64,000 nucleotides of DNA from a virus (taxonomy: Duplodnaviria > Heunggongvirae > Uroviricota > Caudoviricetes), in the IMG/VR virus record IMGVR_UViG_3300013800_000001, positions 22,065 to 86,064 of that record. One strand, 5' to 3'. The stretch's first letter is position 1. Each line of letters begins with the position of its first letter. This document shows positions 121 through 28,863 of the stretch, piece by piece. The notes beneath the pieces were generated by a model. It was not told the origin of the DNA. It searched no databases and saw only the letters and a list, made by a program, of their open reading frames with translations. The position numbers were made by a program, and so were the translations under genes.

Positions 121-134
121 TGGAATAAAAATTG

Positions 135-207
135 CTCCAACGGAAGGACTCGAACCTTCAACCATCGCCTTAACAGGGCGCCGCTCTGCCAATTGAGCTA
201 CACTGGA
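135..207 (-). tRNA. tRNA-Asn(GTT)
   Basis: Hand-folded cloverleaf. Acceptor TCCAGTG/CGTTGGA, T-arm GAAGG-TTCGAGT-CCTTC, anticodon loop CTGTTAA. Confidence 0.75.
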
Positions 208-218
208 ATATTTCCCTG

Positions 219-289
219 TTCTCCCGCCTGGAATCGAACCAGAATCTCTCGGGCTTCAACCGAGCGCTCAACCACTGAGCTACAGAAGA
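219..289 (-). tRNA. tRNA-Phe(GAA)
   Basis: Cloverleaf with D-arm GCTCAGTGGTTGAGC, anticodon loop TTGAAGC and T-loop TTCGATT. Confidence 0.75.
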
Positions 290-297
290 TTAGACCT

Positions 298-1041
298 CTA
301 ATCGAGGTCAAGTTTTAAATATCTACCCTGACTGCCTTTTAGAGTAAGCGCCTGGACAAAATGGTACTTCACTCCATCTACTTCTTTTGTCTTATGCACA
401 ACATGGTAATCTCCACCTAGTACATGTTTTACATTCGTGTCCTTAATAGCCTCAAAAAACTTTTCATATGTAGGTTTCGGTGTGACCGTGTCCTTTCTAA
501 ATGGTGGCTTTGAGATAGCAATAACGATCTTCTTATCTGTATCTAACTTCTCTTTCAGCCACTTAATCTGCTCATCTGAGAAACCGCCGTCATTCTGTCC
601 TGTTGGATTATATGAGACTTCTTCAGAGTTCATAACAATTATACGCCAACCATCCTTATCTACACTATAATATTTTGATCCTGATAGATACTTAAACCCT
701 TTATCACAATCATGATTACCGAATCCAAAGTAAACCTGTTTCCCTGATTTATCTACTGCTTTTCGAAGTTTTTTATCATACTTTTTAGCGTCTTTACACT
801 TATTGGAATTGTCACCAAGTGCGATATAAATATCTCCTGGTTGATTCAAGAATGCACTAAAATAAGATACTCCCTTGCTAGGATAAATTATATTGCCCGG
901 CGTTGACTTGCTGTAATCACGCTTTTTTTGACTTCCTGCATGGATATCTGATGTTACGTTTAATGTAAAAGCTTCTACTGATGGTAGGCTAACAAATGCA
1001 AATAAGAGTAACGACATCAAGCCTGTGAATGCTATTTTCAT
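298..1041 (-). CDS. Secreted calcineurin-like metallophosphoesterase (signal peptide MKIAFTGLMSLLLFAFVSLPSVEA). The start is moved to the Met at 1041 because the track ORF runs into a tRNA.
   Basis: Motifs IALGDN, GNHD and GDYHVVH. The hydrophobic N-terminus ends in an AxA-like cleavage site. Confidence 0.6.
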   Translation of the reverse strand: MKIAFTGLMSLLLFAFVSLPSVEAFTLNVTSDIHAGSQKKRDYSKSTPGNIIYPSKGVSYFSAFLNQPGDIYIALGDNSNKCKDAKKYDKKLRKAVDKSGKQVYFGFGNHDCDKGFKYLSGSKYYSVDKDGWRIIVMNSEEVSYNPTGQNDGGFSDEQIKWLKEKLDTDKKIVIAISKPPFRKDTVTPKPTYEKFFEAIKDTNVKHVLGGDYHVVHKTKEVDGVKYHFVQALTLKGSQGRYLKLDLD

Positions 1042-1068
1042 ATAATTTTCGATAATATTTAAACTCTG

Positions 1069-1143
1069 TGAACCATGATGGATTCGAACCATCGACCTTG
1101 AGGTTAAAAGCCCCCTGCTCTGGCCGGACTGAGCTAATAGTTC
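1069..1143 (-). tRNA. tRNA-Lys(TTT)
   Basis: Acceptor GAACTAT/ATGGTTC, anticodon loop CTTTTAA, T-arm GATGG-TTCGAAT-CCATC. Confidence 0.75.
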
Positions 1144-1261
1144 ATATTGATTCACTGATGTGTGGCCGAGTTTTACTGACTTATACCAGTCGTGAGGTAA
1201 TTAGCCTCCTCGGTGCCCGTTAGGACTGCTTCACCCTGCCACGCATCAATGAACCATCTTG

Positions 1262-1334
1262 TGATCTGAGAAGGAATCGAACCTTCAACCTTCTGGTTAA
1301 GAGCCAGTTGCTCTGCCTATTGAGCTACCAGATC
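1262..1334 (-). tRNA. tRNA-Lys(CTT)
   Basis: Acceptor GATCTGG/TCAGATC, anticodon loop CTCTTAA, T-arm GAAGG-TTCGATT-CCTTC. Confidence 0.75.
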
Positions 1335-1340
1335 ATCTTG

Positions 1341-1427
1341 AGGAGAATGAAGGATTTGAACCTTCGTTGCTTTTACACAATACAGTTTTCAAGACTGTTG
1401 CCATCAACCAGACTCGGCCAATTCTCC
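1341..1427 (-). tRNA. tRNA-Ser(TGA), class II
   Basis: 87 nt. Perfect acceptor GGAGAAT/ATTCTCC, anticodon stem ACAGT/ACTGT with loop CTTGAAA, long variable arm. Confidence 0.75.
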
Positions 1428-1478
1428 TGGAGAATGTTCCTATTGGGTATCCCCTAATCGTCACAAACAACCGTTATG

Positions 1479-1562
1479 AGGAAGACAGACTATTCGAAAG
1501 CCATTCCTTGCGGAACCCTTCCCTTAGCACGGGAGTGCAGCGCCTTGCTGCTTTATCTTCCT
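1479..1562 (-). tRNA. tRNA-Ser(GCT), class II, weak T-stem
   Basis: 82 nt. Acceptor (A)GGAAGAT/GTCTTCC(T), D-stem GCAG/CTGC, anticodon loop GTGCTAA, variable hairpin TTCC-GCAA-GGAA, T-loop TTCGAAT on a 4-bp stem. Confidence 0.55.
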
Positions 1563-1623
1563 AAATGAGGGAGTGCTATTAAGCGTCACTCAATCGCTAA
1601 ACATGACAGTACTATCATATTTG

Positions 1624-1695
1624 TTCTAGAGGTACGGATCGAACATACTCATACAGGGTTCAAAGCCCCGTGCCTTCCCATTTGGCTACTCTAGA
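1624..1695 (-). tRNA. tRNA-Gln(TTG)
   Basis: Acceptor TCTAGAG/CTCTAGA, anticodon stem CGGGG/CCCTG with loop CTTTGAA, T-loop TTCGATC. Confidence 0.7.
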
Positions 1696-1730
1696 ATATT
1701 TACAGACTGGAGGTGGAGTACCCAGAGGCC

Positions 1731-1773
1731 GTCGCCTCGCCAGTTCGTCTCTTCCATACGTCTATGGCCGGAC
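1731..1773 (-). other. Two spacer hairpins that share a GACG tetraloop (GAGGC-GACG-GCCTC and CCATA-GACG-TATGG on the minus strand)
   Basis: Both are perfect 5-bp stems with identical 4-nt loops, in the 106-nt spacer between two tRNA-Gln genes. No cloverleaf fits. Confidence 0.4.
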
Positions 1774-1802
1774 TTATACTCCCCCTTCAATCTGCAAATT
1801 TG

Positions 1803-1873
1803 TTTCAGTCCAAGGATTCGAACCTCACTTAACAGCTTCAGAGGCTGCTGTCCTACCGCTAGACGAGACTGAA
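1803..1873 (-). tRNA. tRNA-Gln(CTG)
   Basis: Acceptor TTCAGTC/GACTGAA, anticodon loop CTCTGAA, T-loop TTCGAAT. Confidence 0.7.
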
Positions 1874-1886
1874 AAATGAACTCTGG

Positions 1887-1960
1887 GGTGATCGGAGGGG
1901 CTCGAACCCTCAACGGCTCGCTTCACAAACGAGTACTCTGCCAATTGAGCTACGAACACC
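1887..1960 (-). tRNA. tRNA-His(GTG)
   Basis: Anticodon loop TTGTGAA. Extra 5' G(-1) opposite a C73 discriminator, the His identity signature. D-arm GCTCAATTGGCAGAG. Confidence 0.75.
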
Positions 1961-2148
1961 CCAGAATTCACTTGTGGACAGTGTCGGTAACGATCCGACT
2001 CTTTCTGGTTGCAAACCAGATGTGCTGGCCTTTATCACTAACCGCCCATAAATTGAAGAGTGGCCATCTAGTCCATTCAGGAGCGACCTGAGTTATCCCT
2101 TCGCTCTGCTAGATACCATTGAGGAAGGTGTTCGGCGTCTTCAATTTG

Positions 2149-2229
2149 TGGAGATAGAGAGAATCGAACTCTCGTCCGATAGAGTGCCCTTTCGGGATTT
2201 AACTACCGTCGAAACCATTGCTTATCCCC
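2149..2229 (-). ncRNA. Atypical tRNA-like element (81 nt): acceptor and T-arm present, no canonical D/anticodon arms, contains a CCC-GAAA-GGG hairpin
   Basis: Acceptor GGGGATA/TATCTCC and T-arm GAGAG-TTCGATT-CTCTC are clear. The internal part folds as GGTTT-(11 nt)-AAATC plus a CCCGAAAGGG GNRA hairpin instead of a 7-nt anticodon loop. Confidence 0.4.
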
Positions 2230-2230
2230 G

Positions 2231-2301
2231 CATAGAAACCTGGATTTGAACCAGGACTAAAGGTTTTGGAGACCTTTGTGCTGCCGTTACACTATTTCCA
2301 C
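2231..2301 (-). tRNA. tRNA-Trp(CCA)
   Basis: Anticodon stem AAGGT/ACCTT with loop CTCCAAA, G73 discriminator, T-arm CCTGG-TTCAAAT-CCAGG. Confidence 0.75.
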
Positions 2302-2431
2302 GTATTGCTTTTGCTTCTCGAAAATCTTTAGACTAAAGAAATCTTTAGCATTCCACCTGTTCTGCCACTTCATTTTATGAGGCTTACAGAGTGCACATGA
2401 TCGCTTTTTCTTTTTTAGTCTCTTTCTCATA

Positions 2432-2611
2432 CTACTTTCTTAACTCTAACTGATTCTCATTGAATATATGTAGCAACCCGTCTTTATGCTCTGCTACTAT
2501 TCTCACATCACCCTTTGTGTTGGTAAAAATAGCTACAATAATCGAGTTGAACTTATATCCACTAACTTTCTTTGCTTTATCGCCTATCTTGAATTTTGAC
2601 TTTATCTTCAT
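2432..2611 (-). CDS. Small hypothetical protein (59 aa, MKIKSKFKIGDKAKKVSGYKFNSIIVAIFTNTKGDVRIVAEHKDGLLHIFNENQLELRK) inside the tRNA array
   Basis: Translated by hand. It is one residue under the ORF-track cutoff. It looks like a KOW/SH3-like small domain and sits in a 330-nt tRNA-free gap. Confidence 0.4.
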   Translation of the reverse strand: MKIKSKFKIGDKAKKVSGYKFNSIIVAIFTNTKGDVRIVAEHKDGLLHIFNENQLELRK

Positions 2612-2630
2612 ATATTTCTTTATTTATCTG

Positions 2631-2704
2631 TAATCCTAGTCGGATTCGAACCGACGATAACCTGTCTGAAAAACAGGGGGCTTGGGCCGCTTGCCTATAG
2701 GATC
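2631..2704 (-). tRNA. tRNA-Glu(TTC)
   Basis: Anticodon stem CCTGT/ACAGG with loop TTTTCAG, T-arm GTCGG-TTCGAAT-CCGAC. Confidence 0.7.
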
Positions 2705-2709
2705 ATCTG

Positions 2710-2792
2710 TGGGAGGAGTTGGATTCGAACCAACAATGTTTCCGTGTCACGGTTTTACAGACCGCTTGCTTCACCAATTTGCATATCCGCCC
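2710..2792 (-). tRNA. tRNA-Tyr(GTA), class II
   Basis: 83 nt. Anticodon loop CTGTAAA, long variable arm, T-arm GTTGG-TTCGAAT-CCAAC. Confidence 0.7.
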
Positions 2793-2900
2793 TTTTGGAA
2801 CCTATTGCTAGGCGGCCTTTCACCCTATTGCGTAATGGGACTTCAGTAACGGATATATACGCTAACCGTTAAACCGAAAATGGCTCTTATTAATATTCTG

Positions 2901-2972
2901 TTGGCTTAACTAGATTCGAACTAGTGACCTTAGGATTAGAAGTCCTGCGCTCTTCCGCTGAGCTATAAGCCA
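2901..2972 (-). tRNA. tRNA-Arg(TCT)
   Basis: Perfect acceptor TGGCTTA/TAAGCCA, anticodon loop CTTCTAA, D-arm GCTCAGCGGAAGAGC. Confidence 0.75.
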
Positions 2973-2973
2973 G

Positions 2974-3047
2974 TAGGTTATGAAGGAGTCGAACCTTCAC
3001 TGTATGCATTTTGAGTGCATTGCGTCTGCCAATTGCGCCAATAACCC
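2974..3047 (-). tRNA. tRNA with Leu anticodon CAA but class-I (74-nt) architecture
   Basis: Anticodon stem TGCAT/ATGCA with loop CTCAAAA. A73. No long variable arm. It abuts its neighbours on both sides, so it cannot be longer. Confidence 0.6.
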
Positions 3048-3048
3048 G

Positions 3049-3120
3049 TAGGCAATGTTGGAATCGAACCAACGACTTGAAGTATATAAGACTTCATTTC
3101 TTCCACTGAATTAATTGCCT
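3049..3120 (-). tRNA. tRNA-Ile(TAT), reads AUA
   Basis: Perfect acceptor AGGCAAT/ATTGCCT, anticodon stem GAAGT/ACTTC with loop CTTATAT. Confidence 0.7.
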
Positions 3121-3213
3121 GTACGCAAGTATTCCCCCTCTATCACGATTACCAATCGGGGTCTTTCGACCTAATCACGATAGCTTCACCCGAATAGGAG
3201 GAATACCTACATG

Positions 3214-3285
3214 TTGGTAAGGAAGGAGTTGAACCTTCGACCTTAGCCGTATCAGGACTCTGCTCTACCGTTGAGCTACTCACCA
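3214..3285 (-). tRNA. tRNA-Ile(GAT)
   Basis: Acceptor TGGTGAG/CTTACCA, D-arm GCTCAACGGTAGAGC, anticodon loop CTGATAC. Confidence 0.65.
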
Positions 3286-3455
3286 ATATGGTCATTAGAT
3301 AGGTAAGGATTTGACGAGATGTGAGGCTGTAAAACCTTCTTTAATCTATCCACAGATAGAGCATTACTCGTATAGTCACCTTACATGGATTTCCTACCAG
3401 TATCTTTATCCCAACTGGTTTCAGGCGTTACTATTCCGCCACTATCTAAATCCCG

Positions 3456-3528
3456 TAGTTCCCCTGGGATTCGAACCCAGACTTTAGACATTTTAAGTGT
3501 CTTGCCTCTGCCGTTGGGCTAGAGAACC
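3456..3528 (-). tRNA. tRNA with Leu anticodon TAA but class-I (73-nt) architecture
   Basis: Anticodon stem AGACA/TGTCT with loop CTTAAAA. A73. Short variable loop. Confidence 0.6.
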
Positions 3529-3626
3529 ATTGCAATACCTTTTAATCCTATGTGCGGGGCCTCGATAATATTTATATCCAACCATGGTAACCTCACAAAA
3601 CACATTAACGGAAAAAAAGGATTTTG

Positions 3627-3707
3627 TGCGTTAGGAGAGACTCGAACTCTCAACCCTTTCGGGCACGGTTTCTAAGACCGCTGTGTAAACCGTTCCACCA
3701 CCAACGC
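3627..3707 (-). tRNA. tRNA-Leu(TAG), class II
   Basis: 81 nt. Anticodon stem GCGGT/ACCGT with loop CTTAGAA. Variable arm is a CCC-GAAA-GGG hairpin. Confidence 0.7.
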
Positions 3708-3749
3708 ATAGACTTATCGACTTATCGGCCATCGACGTATTACCATCTG

Positions 3750-3823
3750 TACGCTCTGAGGGATTTGAACCCCCGACTTTCTGGTTCGAAGCCAGACACT
3801 CTAGTCCACTGAGTTAAGAGCGT
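3750..3823 (-). tRNA. tRNA-Arg(TCG)
   Basis: Perfect acceptor ACGCTCT/AGAGCGT, anticodon stem TCTGG/CCAGA with loop CTTCGAA. Confidence 0.75.
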
Positions 3824-3949
3824 ATGTTCCCAGGCTTTCATTGGTACCTGGAGTGAGCCTGACATTAAGGGGTATAGCCCCGCATCTGACGACGCAACGT
3901 ACAACCACAATCCCGTAGTAAGGAAATGTATTCTAGTTACTTAATTCAC

Positions 3950-4046
3950 TAGTGGGGAGGAGCGCAAAGTATTACCAGTGACGCCATTCAACAGGGTACT
4001 CTATTACGCATTTCGCCTGAAGGTTTCGTAATCCCTCCCCCCCACT
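3950..4046. other. Structured spacer element: G-run (GTGGGGAGG) pairs with a C-run (CCTCCCCCCAC) about 80 nt away, enclosing repeated CGTAAT/ATTACG motifs
   Basis: It lies in the longest (about 235 nt) tRNA-free spacer of the array. No cloverleaf fits. Confidence 0.3.
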
Positions 4047-4058
4047 AAAGAACTATTG

Positions 4059-4129
4059 AGCACGATACTGGAATCGAACCAGTATATCAGGGTTTGCAAT
4101 CCTGCACCTAGCCTTTCGGTCAACCGTGC
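4059..4129 (-). tRNA. tRNA-Cys(GCA)
   Basis: Anticodon loop TTGCAAA. U73 discriminator, the Cys identity element. Confidence 0.7.
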
Positions 4130-4151
4130 TTATTTTAAAATAACTTCTTTG

Positions 4152-4225
4152 TAGTCCGTGTAGGACTTGAACCTACAACCTTCGGTATGTAACACCGTTG
4201 CTCTAGCCAATTGAGCTAACAGACC
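4152..4225 (-). tRNA. tRNA-Val(TAC)
   Basis: D-arm GCTCAATTGGCTAGAGC, anticodon loop GTTACAT, T-arm GTAGG-TTCAAGT-CCTAC. Confidence 0.7.
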
Positions 4226-4407
4226 AAATCAGGCAGGAGGGCGGCAATCCCCATCATGACTTACAGTGGGAGGGCTGTATAAGTCCCGCAGTAGAGCCTT
4301 TCTGCATTTCAACCTGGAGCGTCGTCAGGGTAACGATCCCTGTCCTTCGGTTTGGAAAACCACTATGCGTCCATGAACACCTACAACGCTTATTTTTCTA
4401 TCTTGGG

Positions 4408-4481
4408 AGCCTCCACGAGGATTCGAACCCCGGACCTACGCATTACAAGTGCGCCGCTCTGGCCAACTGAGCTATAAAGGC
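4408..4481 (-). tRNA. tRNA-Thr(TGT)
   Basis: Anticodon stem GCGCA/TGCGT with loop CTTGTAA, D-arm GCTCAGTTGGCCAGAGC. Confidence 0.7.
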
Positions 4482-4602
4482 TTATTACTAGAAATCATGG
4501 TTATCAATATGCCGTATTAGAGTTACTGATTACCATGAGCTGTGCCTACACTGGCTGGCAAGGCACTCGGTAGGGCTTCGGAATATGATCATCTCTTCCT
4601 TG

Positions 4603-4675
4603 TTGCGATAGTGAGAATCGAACTCACGTACTCCTGCTTATGAGACAGGCCTGGGGCCACTCCAGATATATCGCT
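4603..4675 (-). tRNA. tRNA with CAT anticodon (elongator Met or Ile2-lysidine type). Position 1-72 is an A-A mismatch.
   Basis: Anticodon loop CTCATAA. It lacks the three G-C pairs of initiator tRNAs. Confidence 0.65.
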
Positions 4676-4861
4676 ATATGATGTGGGCGCCTCGACCGAG
4701 GACACACATCGACTTTATCTATCCCATAAGCTGGGCTACCAACAAAACTCCAAAACTAGTATGTGCCCACATTGGCTTCTGTTAGCTAGACAGCAGCGCT
4801 TGAAGACATGGAGTGAATGTTCGTAAACCCCACTTATGAGATAGATTTTAAAATAACTGAG

Positions 4862-4932
4862 TCAGAGTACTAGGAGTTGAACCTAGGCCGAATCCTTCCA
4901 AAGGACTCGTGCTACCGTAACACTTTACTCTG
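4862..4932 (-). tRNA. tRNA-Pro(TGG)
   Basis: Perfect acceptor CAGAGTA/TACTCTG, anticodon loop TTTGGAA. Confidence 0.75.
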
Positions 4933-5015
4933 AGAGACGGATAGTTGTTTTTTCCAAGCAAGCAGCTAGGTAGGGGCTGCGATCCGTCAATGGGGCTTAA
5001 ACGCCGATATACCTG

Positions 5016-5087
5016 TGAGTCAGCCGAGAATTGAACTCGGGCCTGCTCCTTGAGAGGGAGCCGTCTTCGCCACTTGACTACAGACTC
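5016..5087 (-). tRNA. tRNA-Glu(CTC)
   Basis: Anticodon stem GCTCC/GGAGC with loop CTCTCAA, T-arm CCGAG-TTCAATT-CTCGG. Confidence 0.7.
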
Positions 5088-5190
5088 ATTTTTGGAACCA
5101 GACGTTTATAGTCCGGCGGCTCGTCTGACTTACGTGCTATAGGATGTGCACACCCCAACACTGCCGACGATGCTCTTTGATCAATTCCTG

Positions 5191-5261
5191 CGGGACATGC
5201 GAGAATCGAACTCGCACTTACTGGTAGACAACCAGGCGCGCTGCCACTACGCCAATGTCCC
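5191..5261 (-). tRNA. tRNA-Asp(GTC)
   Basis: Perfect acceptor GGGACAT/ATGTCCC. G73. Anticodon loop TTGTCTA. Confidence 0.7.
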
Positions 5262-5289
5262 ATTTACTTTTTCAATTTACTACTCTCTA

Positions 5290-5319
5290 AGTGTACATGA
5301 TGATTTTCCATTTGTCAAG
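5290..5319 (-). promoter_or_regulatory. Conserved phage promoter (TTGACA-N17-TACACT) driving the minus-strand tRNA array
   Basis: Reverse complement is cTTGACAaatggaaaatcatcatgTACACT, about 30 nt upstream of the first tRNA. Confidence 0.65.
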
Positions 5320-5325
5320 TCCCCT

Positions 5326-5360
5326 TTGTATAAAAGAAAAACCCACCGTAAGATGGGTTC
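5326..5360 (-). terminator. Rho-independent terminator for the upstream minus-strand operon
   Basis: Hairpin AACCCA-ccgtaaga-TGGGTT followed on the minus strand by TTTTCTTTTAT. Confidence 0.55.
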
Positions 5361-5389: not shown

Positions 5390-5665
5390 CTATTTTTTCT
5401 TTCCTATTGCTTTTTTAACGAGCATCTTATTATCGGTATTGCTACTATTCGGTGAAACGTATGCACCTTTTCCTCCCTTGATGGTCGGCATTGATGCTAT
5501 CGATGGCTTGCTTTTACCTAAGGTGGTCATACCACCGAGAGAACTTTTGGCAAGCTTGCGAGCCCCTTGGACGCCTTTATAGGCAGCCTGCACGGGATGT
5601 GTAGCTCCAAAAGCGGCAGCCTTGCCACCATTGATCATTGATTTGAGAATGTTTTTCTTGTCCAT
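5390..5665 (-). CDS. Hypothetical Gly/Lys-rich protein (91 aa)
   Basis: ORF track. Same strand as the operon. Similar in composition to the next ORF. Confidence 0.45.
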   Translation of the reverse strand: MDKKNILKSMINGGKAAAFGATHPVQAAYKGVQGARKLAKSSLGGMTTLGKSKPSIASMPTIKGGKGAYVSPNSSNTDNKMLVKKAIGKKK

Positions 5666-5703
5666 AATTGAAAGTGTATAAAAGTCCTATTAATTTGTCA
5701 ATC

Positions 5704-6084
5704 CTAACTAGCGTACATCTTGCTTCCTGTATTAGTTCCACGAGCAACTCTAAGGGTATTCTTGAGTGCACGTCTCTTAGCAACATTGGCGCTCATGCGT
5801 CCTAGCACACCACCGGCGGCTAGGCTTCCAATAGTGCCGAGGGTCTTAGCTCCACTGATGGCAGCCTTCTTCCCACTGACATTATCAGAAACATACTTCT
5901 TGGCTGAAGGTGCTACCATACGTTTTGCTATCTTTGAACCAGCGTATTCGGCCAAATCAGTAGCGCCAGATATCCTATTGATTCCTGTAGCTACATCAAA
6001 AGCGAGTCCCTTGCCGGAGGCTTTAACACGTGGGTCATTACTTTTCATGACCTTCTTTAATGCTGCTCTTTTCTGTTCAAACAT
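5704..6084 (-). CDS. Hypothetical Gly/Ala/Lys-rich protein (126 aa), a possible paralogue of the previous gene
   Basis: ORF track. The overlapping plus-strand ORF 5720-6139 is judged antisense noise. Confidence 0.5.
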   Translation of the reverse strand: MFEQKRAALKKVMKSNDPRVKASGKGLAFDVATGINRISGATDLAEYAGSKIAKRMVAPSAKKYVSDNVSGKKAAISGAKTLGTIGSLAAGGVLGRMSANVAKRRALKNTLRVARGTNTGSKMYAS

Positions 6085-6104
6085 AAAAAAAGTATATAAC
6101 AGTC

Positions 6105-6848
6105 CTAAGAATTGTTTTTGTCATAAAGCTCAGGCATGAACCTTCTCAAATATTCGTTAGAAGGATATACAGGAGAGTACAACAAATTCTTGGTAGCTGG
6201 AACGTATATATCTCTATAATCAGGTGCTAATGGTGATCTCATGACGCTACTGCCATTTGAACCATACTCAGCAAAGGACTCAGTGTCCCTCATTCTCTGA
6301 TCAGCATCCATGTAATTGCTAAGGAACTTCTTTAAATACTTGGCGTATTTAGGATCATTCTTTGCTACTTTGTCTTCAAATAAATAGCTATTCCCAGATG
6401 TTCTCCCTCTTTTCACATAGCTGGCATTAGGTTCATCTCTGTTATTAACGTTCTCATCAAGAGAGTGAGTGATCTCATGTCGGAGTGTCCCCACCACTCT
6501 ATCCCCTCTATTCTTTGGGTTTAGTCCATTAGGGTGTACTGTAATCCCACCTTTAGCAGAATTATACTGTCCCATCACAAAAGCCCCTTTGGCTGCGTTA
6601 GACCCTTTGGTGTCTTTTGCTGTTAGAAGCCTAAGAGGCATTTTCTTGATGTATTTCTCTGCCTGTGGGGTATAGGCTGTCTGGTCTAGGACATTTTTCC
6701 TTAGGGTTTCCAATTCAATTGGTTTAGCCTTATATGTCGGTTCTTCATAGGCGTCACTCTTTTTGCTATGCACAAAACCTTTGACGTCACCTTTGACCTC
6801 ATTAATAACTTTCTTCAGAAATTGCTTCTTACTGTCCCAGAAACCCAT
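6105..6848 (-). CDS. Hypothetical protein with an HExxH motif (HEITH), a possible zinc metallopeptidase
   Basis: ORF track. The motif is seen in the translation. No further family call. Confidence 0.5.
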   Translation of the reverse strand: MGFWDSKKQFLKKVINEVKGDVKGFVHSKKSDAYEEPTYKAKPIELETLRKNVLDQTAYTPQAEKYIKKMPLRLLTAKDTKGSNAAKGAFVMGQYNSAKGGITVHPNGLNPKNRGDRVVGTLRHEITHSLDENVNNRDEPNASYVKRGRTSGNSYLFEDKVAKNDPKYAKYLKKFLSNYMDADQRMRDTESFAEYGSNGSSVMRSPLAPDYRDIYVPATKNLLYSPVYPSNEYLRRFMPELYDKNNS

Positions 6849-6886
6849 AGAGTCTTGTTTGTATAACTCTAGGGTAGCAAAGTCCC

Positions 6887-7156
6887 TTAGTTTATAGGGG
6901 CTATTACACCAAGGTCTGAGAGAGTCTCAGCAATGGTATCAAGAAGCATGAGATCATCAGTCTTATCATACTCCTCAATAGCTTTCTGTAATTCAGGGGT
7001 ATCTTCTAATCTTTCAATGTTGTACTTCCCACATAGGTAGCCGATAGCGAATATGTCTTGCGCAAGAAGAATATACTTCTCTTCAGCAGCTTTGTGCACC
7101 ATCTTACGCATATCATTTGATAACTCTTCCTTGCTGCATCTTTGTTTCTTTTCCAT
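6887..7156 (-). CDS. Hypothetical protein (89 aa)
   Basis: ORF track. In the operon. Confidence 0.45.
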   Translation of the reverse strand: MEKKQRCSKEELSNDMRKMVHKAAEEKYILLAQDIFAIGYLCGKYNIERLEDTPELQKAIEEYDKTDDLMLLDTIAETLSDLGVIAPIN

Positions 7157-7248
7157 ATGTTTATATATTACTTAATTATTGGCTTAAATCACCGGGGATT
7201 TTTCTTATTTATCTGTCACACGGTTCAAAGTTTATAACTGTTTATAAC

Positions 7249-7470
7249 TTACTCGTGTGGCGGTTCAATACCTTCCAGCATATACCTCACCATCTCTTCT
7301 GCTTGTGTGTACGTAAAGAGGTTAGTGCCAATAGGTTTATATTCACGCTTATACTCTCCCACTCCCTCGTGGAATTGCTTGAAGCTTATACCTCCATCTG
7401 GGTTAAAGTTCTCAGGTAGTCTCCATTGAAGGAACCGATTTACCATCTTTGCTATTTGCTCTTCATTCAT
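7249..7470 (-). CDS. Hypothetical protein (73 aa)
   Basis: ORF track. In the operon. Confidence 0.45.
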   Translation of the reverse strand: MNEEQIAKMVNRFLQWRLPENFNPDGGISFKQFHEGVGEYKREYKPIGTNLFTYTQAEEMVRYMLEGIEPPHE

Positions 7471-22004: not shown

Positions 22005-23099
22005 TTATTCTTGATTTTTCAATGCTTCTTGTTCTTTTTCCCATTCTTGCTTAGCAATTCTTGACTCTTCCTCCGCTTTGTCGATGATCGCCTGATATTG
22101 CTTATCTCGAACATCTGACTCTTCCTGGGTGCTGATAGATTTCTGGGCATACAAACCGCCTGACGATTTGGATACGTAGGCTTCAACCTTCGCCAGTTTG
22201 AAAGTGCAGAACTCATACACCGTTCCAACACTCGGTCGGTATGGGTCAGTTTTTCCAGCGTCGTATTTTTGAATCAGAATATTTAACTCTGCAAGTGAAT
22301 ATCTCTCCAGGAGGGCATCGACTGCTTCACGGGTCGGTTTGCGAGCATACGGGTTACTTTTCTTACTAGCAAAATCACCTGGGAATATTTCTTTGAATAA
22401 TCCGATAGCCGCATTTGTAACATTGCCAGTTTTGTCTTCTTCAACCAAAAGGGTAAACTCTTCATCAGTTTTCTTTTTCTTATCGTTTTTTTTACCCGAA
22501 GGGTAAACACTACTGCTATTGTCTACTGCTATGTCTACTGCTACTGTCTTATTAGATGGTTCTATTGTGGGACTCAGATGGTTCATATTCGGGACACTGA
22601 TGTCTGGATTGTGAACCATCTCTGTCCCATTTTTGACACTTCTGGATGGTTCACTTTTGACACTTCTAATTGGATGGTTCACTTTTGACACTTCTCTATC
22701 CTTTTTATCGCTAGAGAGATGTGTCATATTTGAGTCATCTGTATCCACTGAATCGGTAGAGAGATGTGTCATATTTGAGTCATCACTCGACTTCTTATTA
22801 AACCTTTTTTTAGCTTTCGTAATTACGATACAGCTACCGTATGGAGTGCGAAGTGTGGTGATGTACCCCCCAGATTTTAGAGTCTCTAGCCAACGGAAAT
22901 ATGTTGAACGTGAAATGCCTAAATCCTCTTTTACGTCCTCATATTTGATTGGCTTACCCCCCAAAACCTTCCCTTTTTCACTTGTAATTGTAGTGACTTT
23001 ATCTATGAACCACATAAAAAGCCAAACAGCATCGCCCATCTGCTTGCAATGTCTTGAATCTAAAAGATTGTTTGATACTTCAATATAGAATCCTTTCAT
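22005..23099 (-). CDS. Replication initiator / replisome organiser (N-terminal winged-helix, DnaD-like C-terminus) with internal iteron-like repeats
   Basis: N-terminal HTH-like region. Repeated peptides DDSNMTHLS. It sits upstream of the loader and helicase, like lambda O-P or DnaD-DnaC arrangements. Confidence 0.6.
   Translation of the reverse strand: MKGFYIEVSNNLLDSRHCKQMGDAVWLFMWFIDKVTTITSEKGKVLGGKPIKYEDVKEDLGISRSTYFRWLETLKSGGYITTLRTPYGSCIVITKAKKRFNKKSSDDSNMTHLSTDSVDTDDSNMTHLSSDKKDREVSKVNHPIRSVKSEPSRSVKNGTEMVHNPDISVPNMNHLSPTIEPSNKTVAVDIAVDNSSSVYPSGKKNDKKKKTDEEFTLLVEEDKTGNVTNAAIGLFKEIFPGDFASKKSNPYARKPTREAVDALLERYSLAELNILIQKYDAGKTDPYRPSVGTVYEFCTFKLAKVEAYVSKSSGGLYAQKSISTQEESDVRDKQYQAIIDKAEEESRIAKQEWEKEQEALKNQE
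22515..22790. repeat. Iteron-like tandem direct repeats inside the initiator gene (candidate origin of replication)
   Basis: TCTACTGCTA(T)G x3. TGGATGGTTCACTTTTGACACTTCT x2 plus a partial copy and an inverted GTGAACCATC. TAGAGAGATGTGTCATATTTGAGTCATC x2. Confidence 0.55.
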
Positions 23100-27165: not shown

Positions 27166-28863
27166 ATGAAAATAATCGCTGAAAAAACTAAATACCATCG
27201 TTTTGCCTTTTATTACGACTATTCTCCAGAAAGGGTTGAATTTTGCCGAAGCTTGAAAGAATCTTTTGGATGGGCAAAGTTCTCTTTTGAAACGGAAGGC
27301 GAATTAAAGAGATGGCTTTTCAGCGACTCGTTGTTTATTCCTGTTATCAAAGAACGGTTTCCAGAAGTACAGATAGACGAACAGGTTGAACAATTAGTAA
27401 TGCAAGAGCAGAAGTGGGCCAATGAGCTTATAAAGCAAGAGAAAAAGATAGATGAAATCAGAAAGAAAGTAGACACCAGATTTGACGTAAGAGGCCTGAA
27501 ACGGGACCTGTATGCTTACCAAAAGGTAGGAGTAGAGTTTCTTACAGCCTCTGGTGGTAGAGCCATCATTGCTGATGCTCCTGGCCTCGGTAAGACAGCT
27601 CAATCTTTGGCTTTTATTAAGCATTCTAAGTTCAAAAGAACGCTTATTGTTTGTCCTGCTTCTGTAAAATTCTCTTGGCAGAATGAAGTGTCTAAGTGGA
27701 CAAATCTATCATCTGTAGTGATTGACAGCAAAACTGATCTATCAAGTGTTGATACTGATGTGAACGTGTGGATTATCAATTATGACATCCTCAAAAAGCA
27801 TTACGGTCAGTTATCTAAAATACGTTTCGATTGCATGGTAGGAGACGAAGTGCAAATGATTAAAAGTACAAATGCCCTTAGGACAAAGGCTTTCCGATCA
27901 ATATCTCGTGACATTAAGTCTGTGGTATTGCTTTCTGGAACGCCATTGCTCTCAAGACCATCTGAACTATTCTCCCTTCTAAACATTGTAGACCCTAATA
28001 CATGGAATAACTGGTATGATTTCGCTCGTAGATATTGCGCTATGAAACAAACACACTGGGGAATGGATACGTCTGGTGCATCTAACATTGAAGAGCTACA
28101 CGCTCGTATCAAGCGTTATTTCATCCGCCGAGATAAGTCTCAGGTGCTCAAAGAGCTCCCTCCAAAGACATTTATTACTATTCCGGTTCAGCTAAGCTCT
28201 GAGTACAACAAACAATACAAAGAAGCATCAAAGAACCTCGCTACGTATCTTAGACTTTATGCGGGTAAACAGCCTGCAGATATCGCTAAAGCTATGGCAG
28301 CTGAGAAACTCACTCAGTTGAATGTTCTCCGCCATCTCAATGCTATGGGTAAGGTAAAAGTGGCTATAGAACTGATAGAGTCAATCCTAGAAGCTGGTGA
28401 AAAGGTTCTCATATTCTCTTCATTTGTTGAGCCATTGCTCGAATTGCAGGATAAGTTTTACAGCGAATCAGTGATGATAACTGGACAAACTCCTGTTCAA
28501 GATAGAGGCTTCATTGTTAATTCTTTTCAGAATGATCCAAACGTAAAAGTATTCTTAGGAGGAATCAAGAGTGCTGGTGTGGGTATTACCCTTACAGCCG
28601 CCTCTAATGTTATTTTCCTTGATTATAGCTGGAATCCAGCTGACCATCAGCAGGCTCAAGACCGTGTGCATAGACCAGGGCAAGTAGCTAATTCTGTGAA
28701 TATCTATCAGCTAACTGCTATTGATACGATAGATGAAGACTTGAAAGAAACGCTTGACCGAAAACAGGGCATATTTGACCAGGTTATAGAAGGAAAGAGG
28801 GCTGTTAAGAAAGAAAAGAACGCCATGGACTCAGCTGTGCAGCGTGTGCTGGATAATTACTAA
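27166..28863 (+). CDS. SNF2-family (Swi2/Snf2) helicase
   Basis: Motifs LYAYQKVGVEFL, ADAPGLGKT, DEVQMIK, and helicase C-terminal QDRVHRPGQ. Confidence 0.85.
   Translation: MKIIAEKTKYHRFAFYYDYSPERVEFCRSLKESFGWAKFSFETEGELKRWLFSDSLFIPVIKERFPEVQIDEQVEQLVMQEQKWANELIKQEKKIDEIRKKVDTRFDVRGLKRDLYAYQKVGVEFLTASGGRAIIADAPGLGKTAQSLAFIKHSKFKRTLIVCPASVKFSWQNEVSKWTNLSSVVIDSKTDLSSVDTDVNVWIINYDILKKHYGQLSKIRFDCMVGDEVQMIKSTNALRTKAFRSISRDIKSVVLLSGTPLLSRPSELFSLLNIVDPNTWNNWYDFARRYCAMKQTHWGMDTSGASNIEELHARIKRYFIRRDKSQVLKELPPKTFITIPVQLSSEYNKQYKEASKNLATYLRLYAGKQPADIAKAMAAEKLTQLNVLRHLNAMGKVKVAIELIESILEAGEKVLIFSSFVEPLLELQDKFYSESVMITGQTPVQDRGFIVNSFQNDPNVKVFLGGIKSAGVGITLTAASNVIFLDYSWNPADHQQAQDRVHRPGQVANSVNIYQLTAIDTIDEDLKETLDRKQGIFDQVIEGKRAVKKEKNAMDSAVQRVLDNY

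Follow-up and report, generated by a model that had tools for sequence, protein, structure and literature searches.

The window analysed here is a stretch of 64,000 nucleotides of a virus of the class Caudoviricetes (IMG/VR record IMGVR_UViG_3300013800_000001, positions 22,065 to 86,064), and all coordinates given without a contig name are those of the window. An array of tRNA genes lies near its first position. The tRNAs were detected with ARAGORN, used at default and relaxed to -ps95, -ps85 and -ps75, and with the Rfam covariance model RF00005. Twenty-six tRNA genes were common to default ARAGORN and Rfam. They span 134-5261 and are all on the minus strand. Relaxed ARAGORN added two tRNAs, Gly(TCC) at 4315-4389 and Ser(GCT) at 1478-1561. 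In total, the array consists of 28 tRNAs for all 20 amino acids and one RNA resembling transfer-messenger RNA (tmRNA). The original prediction, which was made from the sequence alone, had described a 27-gene array; the array itself is found by both programs and its gene count is corrected. The main subject of this study is a pair of short tRNAs in the array with leucine anticodons, tRNA-Leu(CAA) at 2974-3047 and tRNA-Leu(TAA) at 3456-3528, which are of class I size.

Both short tRNAs had been proposed as genes of 73-74 nt, and the same boundaries on the minus strand were returned by ARAGORN and by Rfam (56.5 bits for the CAA tRNA and 56.2 bits for the TAA tRNA). The Rfam covariance alignments give the anticodon loops CU-CAA-AA and CU-UAA-AA. 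Because these are canonical 7-nt loops, the possible off-by-one error in the anticodon register, which had been named as a refutation, fails. The cloverleaf of tRNA-Leu(CAA) from ARAGORN is GGGUUAU UG GCG CAAUUGGCAGA CGC A AUGCA CUCAAAA UGCAU ACAGU GAAGG UUCGACU CCUUC AUAACCU A, with the D stem GCG/CGC of 3 bp, the D loop CAAUUGGCAGA and the T loop UUCGACU. That of tRNA-Leu(TAA) is GGUUCUC UA GCC CAACGGCAGA GGC A AGACA CUUAAAA UGUCU AAAGU CUGGG UUCGAAU CCCAG GGGAACU A, with the D stem GCC/GGC of 3 bp, the D loop CAACGGCAGA and the T loop UUCGAAU. As claimed, both tRNAs end with A73 and lack the long variable arm. Their variable loops are ACAGU (CAA) and AAAGU (TAA), 5 nt each, so neither has the stem-forming arm, longer than 10 nt, that characterises class II. 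Both have G1·U72, U8, A14, A15, U48 and the 3-bp D stem. Their D arm is of the leucine type, with a C13·A22 mismatch, A14, A15 and G18G19-C-A-G-A, and position 13:22 is flagged as non-canonical in both covariance-model alignments. The identity elements of E. coli leucyl-tRNA synthetase (LeuRS), as listed by Fan et al. 2019 (PMC6614811), are A73, U8-A14, A15-U48, G18/G19-U55/C56 and U54-A58. All of them are present in both tRNAs. Marks of other isotypes are missing from both, as there is neither a G3·U70 pair nor an extra G-1. No tRNA of the array has a suppressor anticodon (CUA, UCA or UUA) in ARAGORN searches down to -ps75, in agreement with the original prediction.

TRNAs of this kind were sought in other phages. 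A BLAST search of GenBank phages with the TAA tRNA yielded 42 records, aligned without gaps over positions 8-64 at 78-88% identity. Nearly all of the annotated records listed call the match tRNA-Leu. Leucine tRNAs of 73-78 nt with the anticodon TAA, CAA, TAG or AAG were confirmed by annotation and ARAGORN in Prochlorococcus phage P-SSM7, Lactobacillus phage LP65, Bacillus phage P59, Cronobacter phage S13, Acinetobacter phage YMC13/03/R2096, Erwinia phage Hena2 and related Salmonella phages (Kolesnikvirus), Streptomyces phage Wakanda, Myxococcus phage Mx1 and Pseudomonas phage Boevelstad. A class-I-sized tRNA-Leu is also annotated in phage P-RSM6. The Ser and Tyr tRNAs of the same phage arrays retain their long arms.

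The collections were further scanned with the pattern GGCAGA-N9-CTYAAAA-N14-GTTCGA, which combines the leucine-type D loop, a UAA/CAA anticodon loop and class I spacing. It matches at least 120 loci in IMG/VR and at least 120 loci in GTDB contigs (one genome per species). Among the matches listed, about 70 of 80 genome records belong to Actinomycetota, including Nocardioides, Nocardia, Mycobacterium, Gordonia, Arthrobacter, Microbacterium, Corynebacterium and others. In 109 of the 120 genomic loci among the matches listed, this is the single tRNA, often on a megabase contig, which suggests that it is the cell's own tRNALeu. The pattern does not impose C13, U48 or A73. Among the matches listed, C13 was found in 114/118 viral and 124/124 genomic tRNAs, A73 in 118/118 and 123/124, and U48 and the 5-nt variable loop in all viral and all genomic tRNAs; G1·U72 was found in 77/118 viral and 18/124 genomic tRNAs. 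The original prediction had implied that class-I-sized tRNA-Leu is rare. With many annotated GenBank phages and at least 120 loci in IMG/VR, this is wrong for phages. A literature search found no paper specifically on class I tRNALeu in phages.

The labels of these tRNAs differ among database records. The same class I tRNA-Leu(TAA) of Erwinia and Salmonella Kolesnikvirus phages is labelled tRNA-Leu, tRNA-Undet or tRNA-OTHER, or is left unannotated (EU710883, FQ482083/NC_015292, MH426725 and others). The tRNA-Undet label carries a tRNAscan-SE score of 53.4. A class of arm-less tRNALeu explains these inconsistent pipeline labels.

The tie between the tRNA body and leucine was examined with a body signature, which consists of U8, a complementary 3-bp D stem, the D loop C-A-A-N(1-3)-G-G-N-A-G-A/U and class I size. 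A plain-string form of the D-arm signature was dropped because it also matched ordinary 4-bp D stems (GCUC...GAGC), and stem complementarity was then required. In the window and nine GenBank phage loci, the signature is present in 19 of 20 class-I-sized tRNAs with leucine anticodons and in 1 of 105 other class I tRNAs (Fisher p = 3e-20). For an unselected set, 240 loci from the collection scans were added and every tRNA selectable by the search pattern was dropped, which left 546 class I tRNAs. The signature appears in 24 of them: 23 of the 32 leucine tRNAs and one of the 514 others, an Asn tRNA. The anticodons of the 23 leucine tRNAs are TAG (6), CAA (6), CAG (5), TAA (4), AAG (1) and GAG (1). 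All six leucine anticodons therefore share this body and almost no others have it, as expected for an identity that LeuRS reads independently of the anticodon. In all 260 signature-bearing family members analysed, the variable loop has 5 nt and ends in U48.

The isotype was also assessed with the anticodons masked. One profile hidden Markov model (HMM) per isotype was built from 914 ARAGORN-called tRNAs of the fetched loci, with the window excluded. About 15 of the 24 other tRNAs of the window were top-scored by their own isotype, which makes this a rough but still informative method. The class I Leu model gave 43.7 bits for tRNA-Leu(CAA), against 28.3 bits for the next isotype (Lys), and 53.2 bits for tRNA-Leu(TAA), against 30.1 bits for the next isotype. 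On the class II Leu model, tRNA-Leu(CAA) scored 22.7 bits, the highest among the class I tRNAs of the array. Because the training set of the class I Leu model was partly circular, a second model was built from 20 class I Leu tRNAs with CUN anticodons, none of them selectable by the pattern. With this model, the two short tRNAs ranked first and second in the window (47.2 and 43.5 bits), followed by tRNA-Lys(CTT) with 37.2 bits.

The two tRNAs are members of a large, covarying family with leucine anticodons. The alignment of 112 distinct and diverse members (67 viral, 32 genomic, 11 from GenBank phages and 2 from the window) is almost gapless. Invariant positions are U8, A14, A15, G18, G19, A20a, A22, A35, U48, G53, U54, U55, C56, G57, A58, C61 and A73. 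Standard pairs fill 98.8% of the pair cells of the cloverleaf, and double, compensatory changes occur at 19 of 20 pairs, including all three pairs of the D stem. Shuffles score 0.21 for covariation, and sliding the partners gives no more than 0.16, against 0.92 in the alignment. The strong pairing together with the compensatory changes indicates selected tRNAs rather than decaying copies.

The meaning of the codons UUA and UUG (UUR) was determined from the SNF2 helicase of the window, which was aligned with 100 homologues of 55-91% identity. At its 13 UUA/UUG columns, leucine makes up 77% of the homologue residues, followed by Ile, Met and Phe. At its 35 CUN columns, leucine makes up 76% (Mann-Whitney p = 0.65). 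UUR codons thus mean leucine in this gene. UUA accounts for 18% and UUG for 13% of the leucine codons, while AUA accounts for 33% of the isoleucine codons and AGA for 47% of the arginine codons. In this small sample from one gene, nothing suggests reassignment, ambiguity or avoidance of UUR.

Altogether, the short CAA and TAA tRNAs are very likely genuine type I leucine isoacceptors, charged by the host LeuRS and reading UUG and UUA. Both would be transcribed within the phage tRNA operon of about 5 kb and then processed. The host LeuRS would charge them with leucine, and during infection they would read UUG and UUA alongside the class II tRNALeu(UAG) of the phage. Leucine identity would reside in the tRNA body rather than in the variable arm or the anticodon, and its elements would be A73, U8-A14, A15-U48, the 3-bp D stem with the 13·22 mismatch and the geometry of the G18G19-C-A-G-A D loop. 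The original prediction had offered, as one of its options, a LeuRS that tolerates class-I leucine tRNAs. This option is supported by the body signature, the masked profiles, the LeuRS identity elements, the use of UUR as leucine and the precedent of Streptomyces coelicolor, which is compared below.

Several points weigh against this reading. Expression of the two tRNAs and their leucylation by the host enzyme are what we infer from the genes. The phage, with a G+C content of 39%, has no GenBank phage relative that exceeds about 35% protein identity. The codon test covers 13 UUR columns of one gene. The profile HMMs are home-made rather than those of tRNAscan-SE, and most of the training set for class I Leu was gathered with a pattern to which the two window tRNAs conform as well. 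Circularity is lower in the CUN-only model, which places them just 6-10 bits ahead of tRNA-Lys(CTT). In addition, Fan et al. (PMC6614811) report that the LeuRSs of E. coli and S. purpurogeneiscleroticus fail to charge the type I tRNALeu(CAA) of S. coelicolor in vitro. Tolerance of type I tRNALeu is therefore not universal among bacterial LeuRSs.

Three other explanations were considered. The best of them, which we regard as improbable, is that the short tRNAs do not decode and serve as decoys or sponges for host nucleases that target tRNAs, or are decaying pseudogenes. The array does contain one tRNA-like RNA that is unable to decode, the tmRNA-like element, and the region immediately downstream of the array, seen on L429, a contig of the same phage, encodes an RtcB RNA ligase, which fits a setting of tRNA damage. 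For tRNATyr, host defences are known in which the class II variable loop is cut (PMC13096335). On the other hand, more than 100 members preserve the whole cloverleaf, the canonical 7-nt anticodon loops (U33 and A37), the T loop and A73, with compensating substitutions, and the anticodons are limited to leucine codons and come in U34/C34 pairs. Pseudogenes would not retain 98.8% pairing, and a pure decoy needs no leucine-specific body coupled to leucine anticodons.

It is still less probable that genuine leucine tRNAs depend on a phage-encoded or phage-modified LeuRS instead of the unaided host enzyme. No open reading frame (ORF) of the window resembles LeuRS, and the only ORFs of more than 700 amino acids encode a tape-measure protein, a peptidase/lysin-domain protein and an SbcC-like protein. 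Small unrelated phages also carry tRNAs of the same kind, with no annotated synthetase in the regions inspected. In favour of this explanation, the window covers only 64 kb of a genome of about 99 kb, and not every LeuRS charges type I tRNALeu (PMC6614811). Mischarging or recoding, the alternative of the original prediction in which leucine is not the amino acid carried by the tRNAs and UUA/UUG are reassigned or ambiguous during infection, is very improbable and unsupported: the long variable arm of textbook bacterial tRNALeu is missing, some LeuRSs reject type I tRNALeu in vitro (PMC6614811) and some GenBank records label identical tRNAs tRNA-Undet or tRNA-OTHER, but leucine anticodons, all six of them, are essentially the only ones that go with the body signature, class I Leu is the best masked profile by 15-23 bits, both tRNAs have A73 and no identity mark of another isotype (no G3·U70, no extra G-1), UUR stands at leucine-conserved columns as often as CUN and is not avoided, and the same architecture is that of the lone chromosomal tRNALeu(UAA) gene in many Actinomycetota. 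Even taken together, mischarging, decoy RNAs and a phage synthetase are unlikely.

With the two tRNAs taken as type I leucine isoacceptors, the gain for the phage would be small, namely two ordinary UUR-decoding leucine tRNAs in a full set for 20 amino acids. The supposedly rare type I tRNALeu is nevertheless widespread, in viral and genomic collections and in phages of enterobacteria, Firmicutes and cyanobacteria. This raises the question of which LeuRSs accept arm-less tRNALeu and why phages prefer it. From the distribution we can offer a speculative and rather doubtful answer, that arm-less tRNALeu are deliberate phage substitutes which evade tRNA-targeting defences keyed on the long variable arm. 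The idea may concern phages of hosts in which every tRNALeu is of class II, such as enterobacteria, Bacillus, cyanobacteria and perhaps the host of the window phage. If it were true, the enrichment of G1·U72 in phages would be a tuning for E. coli-type LeuRSs, which reject actinobacterial type I tRNALeu in vitro.

The remaining genes of the array, all on the minus strand, are given here in the order of transcription. A terminator-like hairpin with a 9-bp stem and a T run (5339-5360), which ends the upstream gene, stands just before the array. It is followed by a promoter-like site, TTGACA-17-TACACT (5290-5318), which lies 29 nt upstream of the first tRNA and within the motif cttgacaaatggaaaatcat. 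The same motif recurs with a second promoter-like site, TTGACA-17-TATATT (91-119), for the next transcription unit. Thus, a near-identical 35-nt promoter motif (acttgacaaatggaaaatcat...) is found on both sides of the array, where one copy would drive the array and the other follows the last tRNA. Except where stated, the tRNAs below were found by both ARAGORN and Rfam. The first ones are tRNA-Asp(GTC) at 5191-5261, tRNA-Glu(CTC) at 5016-5087, tRNA-Pro(TGG) at 4862-4932, tRNA-Met(CAT) at 4603-4675, tRNA-Thr(TGT) at 4408-4481, tRNA-Gly(TCC) at 4315-4389, tRNA-Val(TAC) at 4152-4225, tRNA-Cys(GCA) at 4059-4129 and tRNA-Arg(TCG) at 3750-3823. The class II tRNA-Leu(TAG), which had been predicted and is borne out by both programs at 3627-3707, has a 13-nt variable arm and a 3-bp D stem (gtg gaacggttta cac). 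The class I tRNA-Leu(TAA) comes next, followed by tRNA-Ile(GAT) at 3214-3285 and tRNA-Ile(TAT) at 3049-3120. The class I tRNA-Leu(CAA) is separated by spacers of 1 nt from tRNA-Ile(TAT) on one side and from tRNA-Arg(TCT) (2901-2972) on the other.

The second half begins with the class II tRNA-Tyr(GTA) at 2710-2792, which is about 87% identical to the tRNA-Tyr of Bacillus Tsarbomba-like phages, and tRNA-Glu(TTC) at 2631-2704. Two small ORFs (59 and 47 amino acids) lie inside the array at 2287-2611, as mapped to the window from gene calls on L429. They are followed by tRNA-Trp(CCA) at 2231-2301, the tmRNA-like RNA at 2146-2229, tRNA-Ala(TGC) at 1975-2047 with G3·U70 and the T loop AUCGUUA, tRNA-His(GTG) at 1887-1959, tRNA-Gln(CTG) at 1803-1873 and tRNA-Gln(TTG) at 1624-1695. 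The class II tRNA-Ser(GCT) at 1478-1561 is weak, with a 4-bp T stem. It was seen only by ARAGORN at -ps85 and was not matched by Rfam even at E <= 10. The class II tRNA-Ser(TGA) at 1341-1427, tRNA-Lys(CTT) at 1262-1334 and tRNA-Lys(TTT) at 1069-1143 precede a metallophosphoesterase gene (PF00149, 247 amino acids) that is embedded in the array at 298-1041. The array ends with tRNA-Phe(GAA) at 219-289 and tRNA-Asn(GTT) at 135-207. The isotype list of the original prediction had missed tRNA-Ala(TGC) and tRNA-Gly(TCC); of its two Ser tRNAs, the second is probably the weak Ser(GCT). U34/C34 pairs of isoacceptors are present for Lys, Gln, Glu and Leu (TAA/CAA), which fits a deliberately complete decoding set.

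Two tRNAs of the array are unusual in other respects. The non-canonical tRNA-Gly(TCC), which has an encoded CCA, was found only by ARAGORN at -ps95; neither ARAGORN at default nor Rfam detected it. Every glycine identity mark of the acceptor is present (G1-C72, C2-G71, G3-C70 and U73), and its tertiary pairs are A8/U14 and A54/U58 instead of the usual U8/A14 and U54/A58. Its T loop AUCGUUA is shared with tRNA-Ala(TGC). The tRNA-Met(CAT) has an A1xA72 mismatch. It is the sole tRNA with a CAT anticodon and does not have the three G-C anticodon-stem pairs expected of an initiator tRNA; it may be an elongator Met, an initiator or an Ile2 tRNA.

The tRNA-Ile(TAT) has a UAU anticodon in a class I tRNA, stands alongside tRNA-Ile(GAT) and is assigned to its isotype by the anticodon only. 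It had been described as uncommon. This does not hold for phages, since 31 Ile(TAT) against 13 Ile(GAT) were counted in the viral loci examined, which had been gathered through the leucine pattern. Arg(TCT) was counted 52 times in the viral loci, and Ile(TAT) and Arg(TCT) occur together in 23 of the 83 multi-tRNA loci. The tRNA-Ile(UAU) is therefore unusual for bacteria and standard in phage tRNA sets with Leu(UAA) and Arg(UCU).

Some spacers between the tRNAs form long closed stems whose interiors are branched. Their folds are far more stable than those of dinucleotide shuffles, and they have no match in Rfam. Such minus-strand spacers are at 1144-1260 (z = -6.0), 1696-1801 (z = -5.4), 3121-3212 (z = -4.7) and 5088-5189 (z = -2.8). 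They may act as processing stems of the RNase III type or be stable small RNAs. The nearest precedent is phage T5 (NC_005859), in which several 'stable RNAs with unknown functions' are annotated between tRNA genes.

The tmRNA-like RNA (Rfam RF00023, 60.1 bits) has 84 nt and consists of the tRNA-like domain (TLD) only, with no room for a tag reading frame. Its acceptor stem of 7 bp, GGGGAUA/UAUCUCC, contains G3·U70 and is followed by A73. It also has the conserved boxes GGUUUCGAC at the 5' side and GGAC at the 3' side, a 5-bp T arm and a 6-bp helix capped by a GAAA hairpin. A pattern scan of IMG/VR found at least 112 further elements of 69-89 nt, with a mode of 79 nt (in L304-L422), and their pairing was counted directly. 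All of the elements among the matches listed have 7/7 acceptor pairs, 5/5 T-stem pairs, G3·U70 and A73. Among the same listed matches, positions 5-7 covary with 66-68 in 15 variant combinations, the central helix has a mean of 5.7 consecutive pairs against 0.6 in shuffles, and most elements sit in loci without tRNA genes. The literature search for TLD-only RNAs found as a precedent only the 'TLD only' sequence of mycobacteriophage DS6A, whose authors suggest an inhibition of trans-translation by titration of SmpB (PMC4131195). The tmRNA-like RNA may be more novel than the short leucine tRNAs.

The window phage has a G+C content of 39% and encodes a tape-measure protein, SNF2 and DnaB-like helicases, a primase and an SbcC-like nuclease. 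A megablast search of the array against GenBank phages gave only tRNA-sized DNA matches. The phage belongs to a large metagenomic family, with helicases of 55-91% identity and contigs of up to about 100 kb. Related loci were sought in IMG/VR with the phosphoesterase embedded in the array and none was found. Phosphoesterase homologues of 56-77% identity are carried by five contigs; ARAGORN scans of four of them (L423-L426) gave no tRNA genes in the 10-kb flanks. On L429, at 5464-7342 and thus beyond window position 1, a second metallophosphoesterase gene and the RtcB RNA ligase gene lie directly downstream of the array. P-SSM7 (L001) also has a 'tRNA ligase' adjoining its tRNA cluster. The ligase and phosphoesterase genes by the array, with the parallel in P-SSM7, suggest a link between tRNA repair and the tRNA set.

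Many homologues of the SNF2 helicase (27166-28863) have 730-950 amino acids compared with about 565, and contain intein-splicing, HNH or LAGLIDADG Pfam domains (P0028, P0053, P0056, P0057, P0060, P0071, P0109 and others). From these enlarged homologues, inteins appear to have invaded the gene repeatedly in this phage family. With regard to the host, the cellular contig L426 (338 kb, JGI) has a 56% identical homologue of the array phosphoesterase among fmt, def, priA, uvrB and cysS, and the helicase homologue P0087 is labelled Candidatus Roizmanbacteria. Both are weak hints at the host lineage.

The closest characterised system is that of S. coelicolor. Fan et al. 2019 (PMC6614811) showed that a type I tRNALeu(CAA) is present there beside four type II species, and that the single LeuRS leucylates both types with kcat/Km values of 6.25 s-1 uM-1 for type I tRNALeu(CAA) and 14.2 s-1 uM-1 for type II. 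In the same paper, the length and not the sequence of the variable loop matters, the U8-A14 pair is required, and bacterial type I tRNALeu is called rare and seen in Streptomyces. The window tRNAs resemble the type I tRNALeu(CAA) of S. coelicolor in their leucine anticodon, 5-nt variable loop, U8-A14, D/T elbow and the class II tRNALeu alongside. They differ in being phage-borne, in a genome of 39% G+C whose host is probably non-actinobacterial, and in having G1·U72 in both copies, and their charging would be deduced by analogy. Moreover, both UUR isoacceptors are of type I in the window, whereas the UAA isoacceptor of S. coelicolor is of type II. In mycobacteria, the tRNALeu(TAG) of a tRNA gene cluster has a short variable loop and the housekeeping isoacceptor a long one, as remarked in passing by Behra et al. 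2019 (PMC6582537), and tRNAIle(TAT) occurs only in such clusters (PMC6582537). Unlike the window array, these clusters are chromosomal (PMC6582537).

The class I tRNA-Leu of GenBank phages share with the window tRNAs the D-arm signature, the 5-nt variable loop ending in U48, A73 and, frequently, G1·U72. They often adjoin Ile(TAT) and Arg(TCT), and P-SSM7 has the same neighbours as the CAA tRNA of the window, namely Ile(TAT), Arg(TCT) and Leu(TAA). However, these phages are of unrelated lineages, without DNA similarity or close protein similarity outside the tRNAs. Some of them carry only class I leucine tRNAs, whereas the window phage keeps a class II Leu(TAG).

Animal mitochondrial tRNALeu(UUR) is of class I, has A73, reads UUR and is charged by a dedicated mitochondrial LeuRS. 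Mitochondrial tRNAs have degenerate D and T loops, in contrast to the canonical G18G19 and UUCGAAU loops of the short phage leucine tRNAs. The LeuRS of S. coelicolor (ScoLeuRS) does not charge animal mitochondrial tRNALeu(UUR) (PMC6614811).

The short tRNAs are finally comparable with class II tRNALeu. Phage T5 was tried as a classical precedent for class I and was rejected, as its single tRNA-Leu(UAG) is of class II with 85 nt. Like the class II tRNALeu of the window (TAG) and of T5 (UAG), the short tRNAs have the 3-bp D stem, A14-A15, G18G19 followed by N-A-G-A, and A73. The class II tRNAs have a variable arm of 13-15 nt and G13, in place of which the short tRNAs have C13. The D arm of a class II tRNALeu of Streptomyces phage Wakanda is UG GCG GAAUGGCAGA CGC and that of the CAA tRNA of the window is UG GCG CAAUUGGCAGA CGC, so that the two differ at position 13 and at one nucleotide of the D loop.

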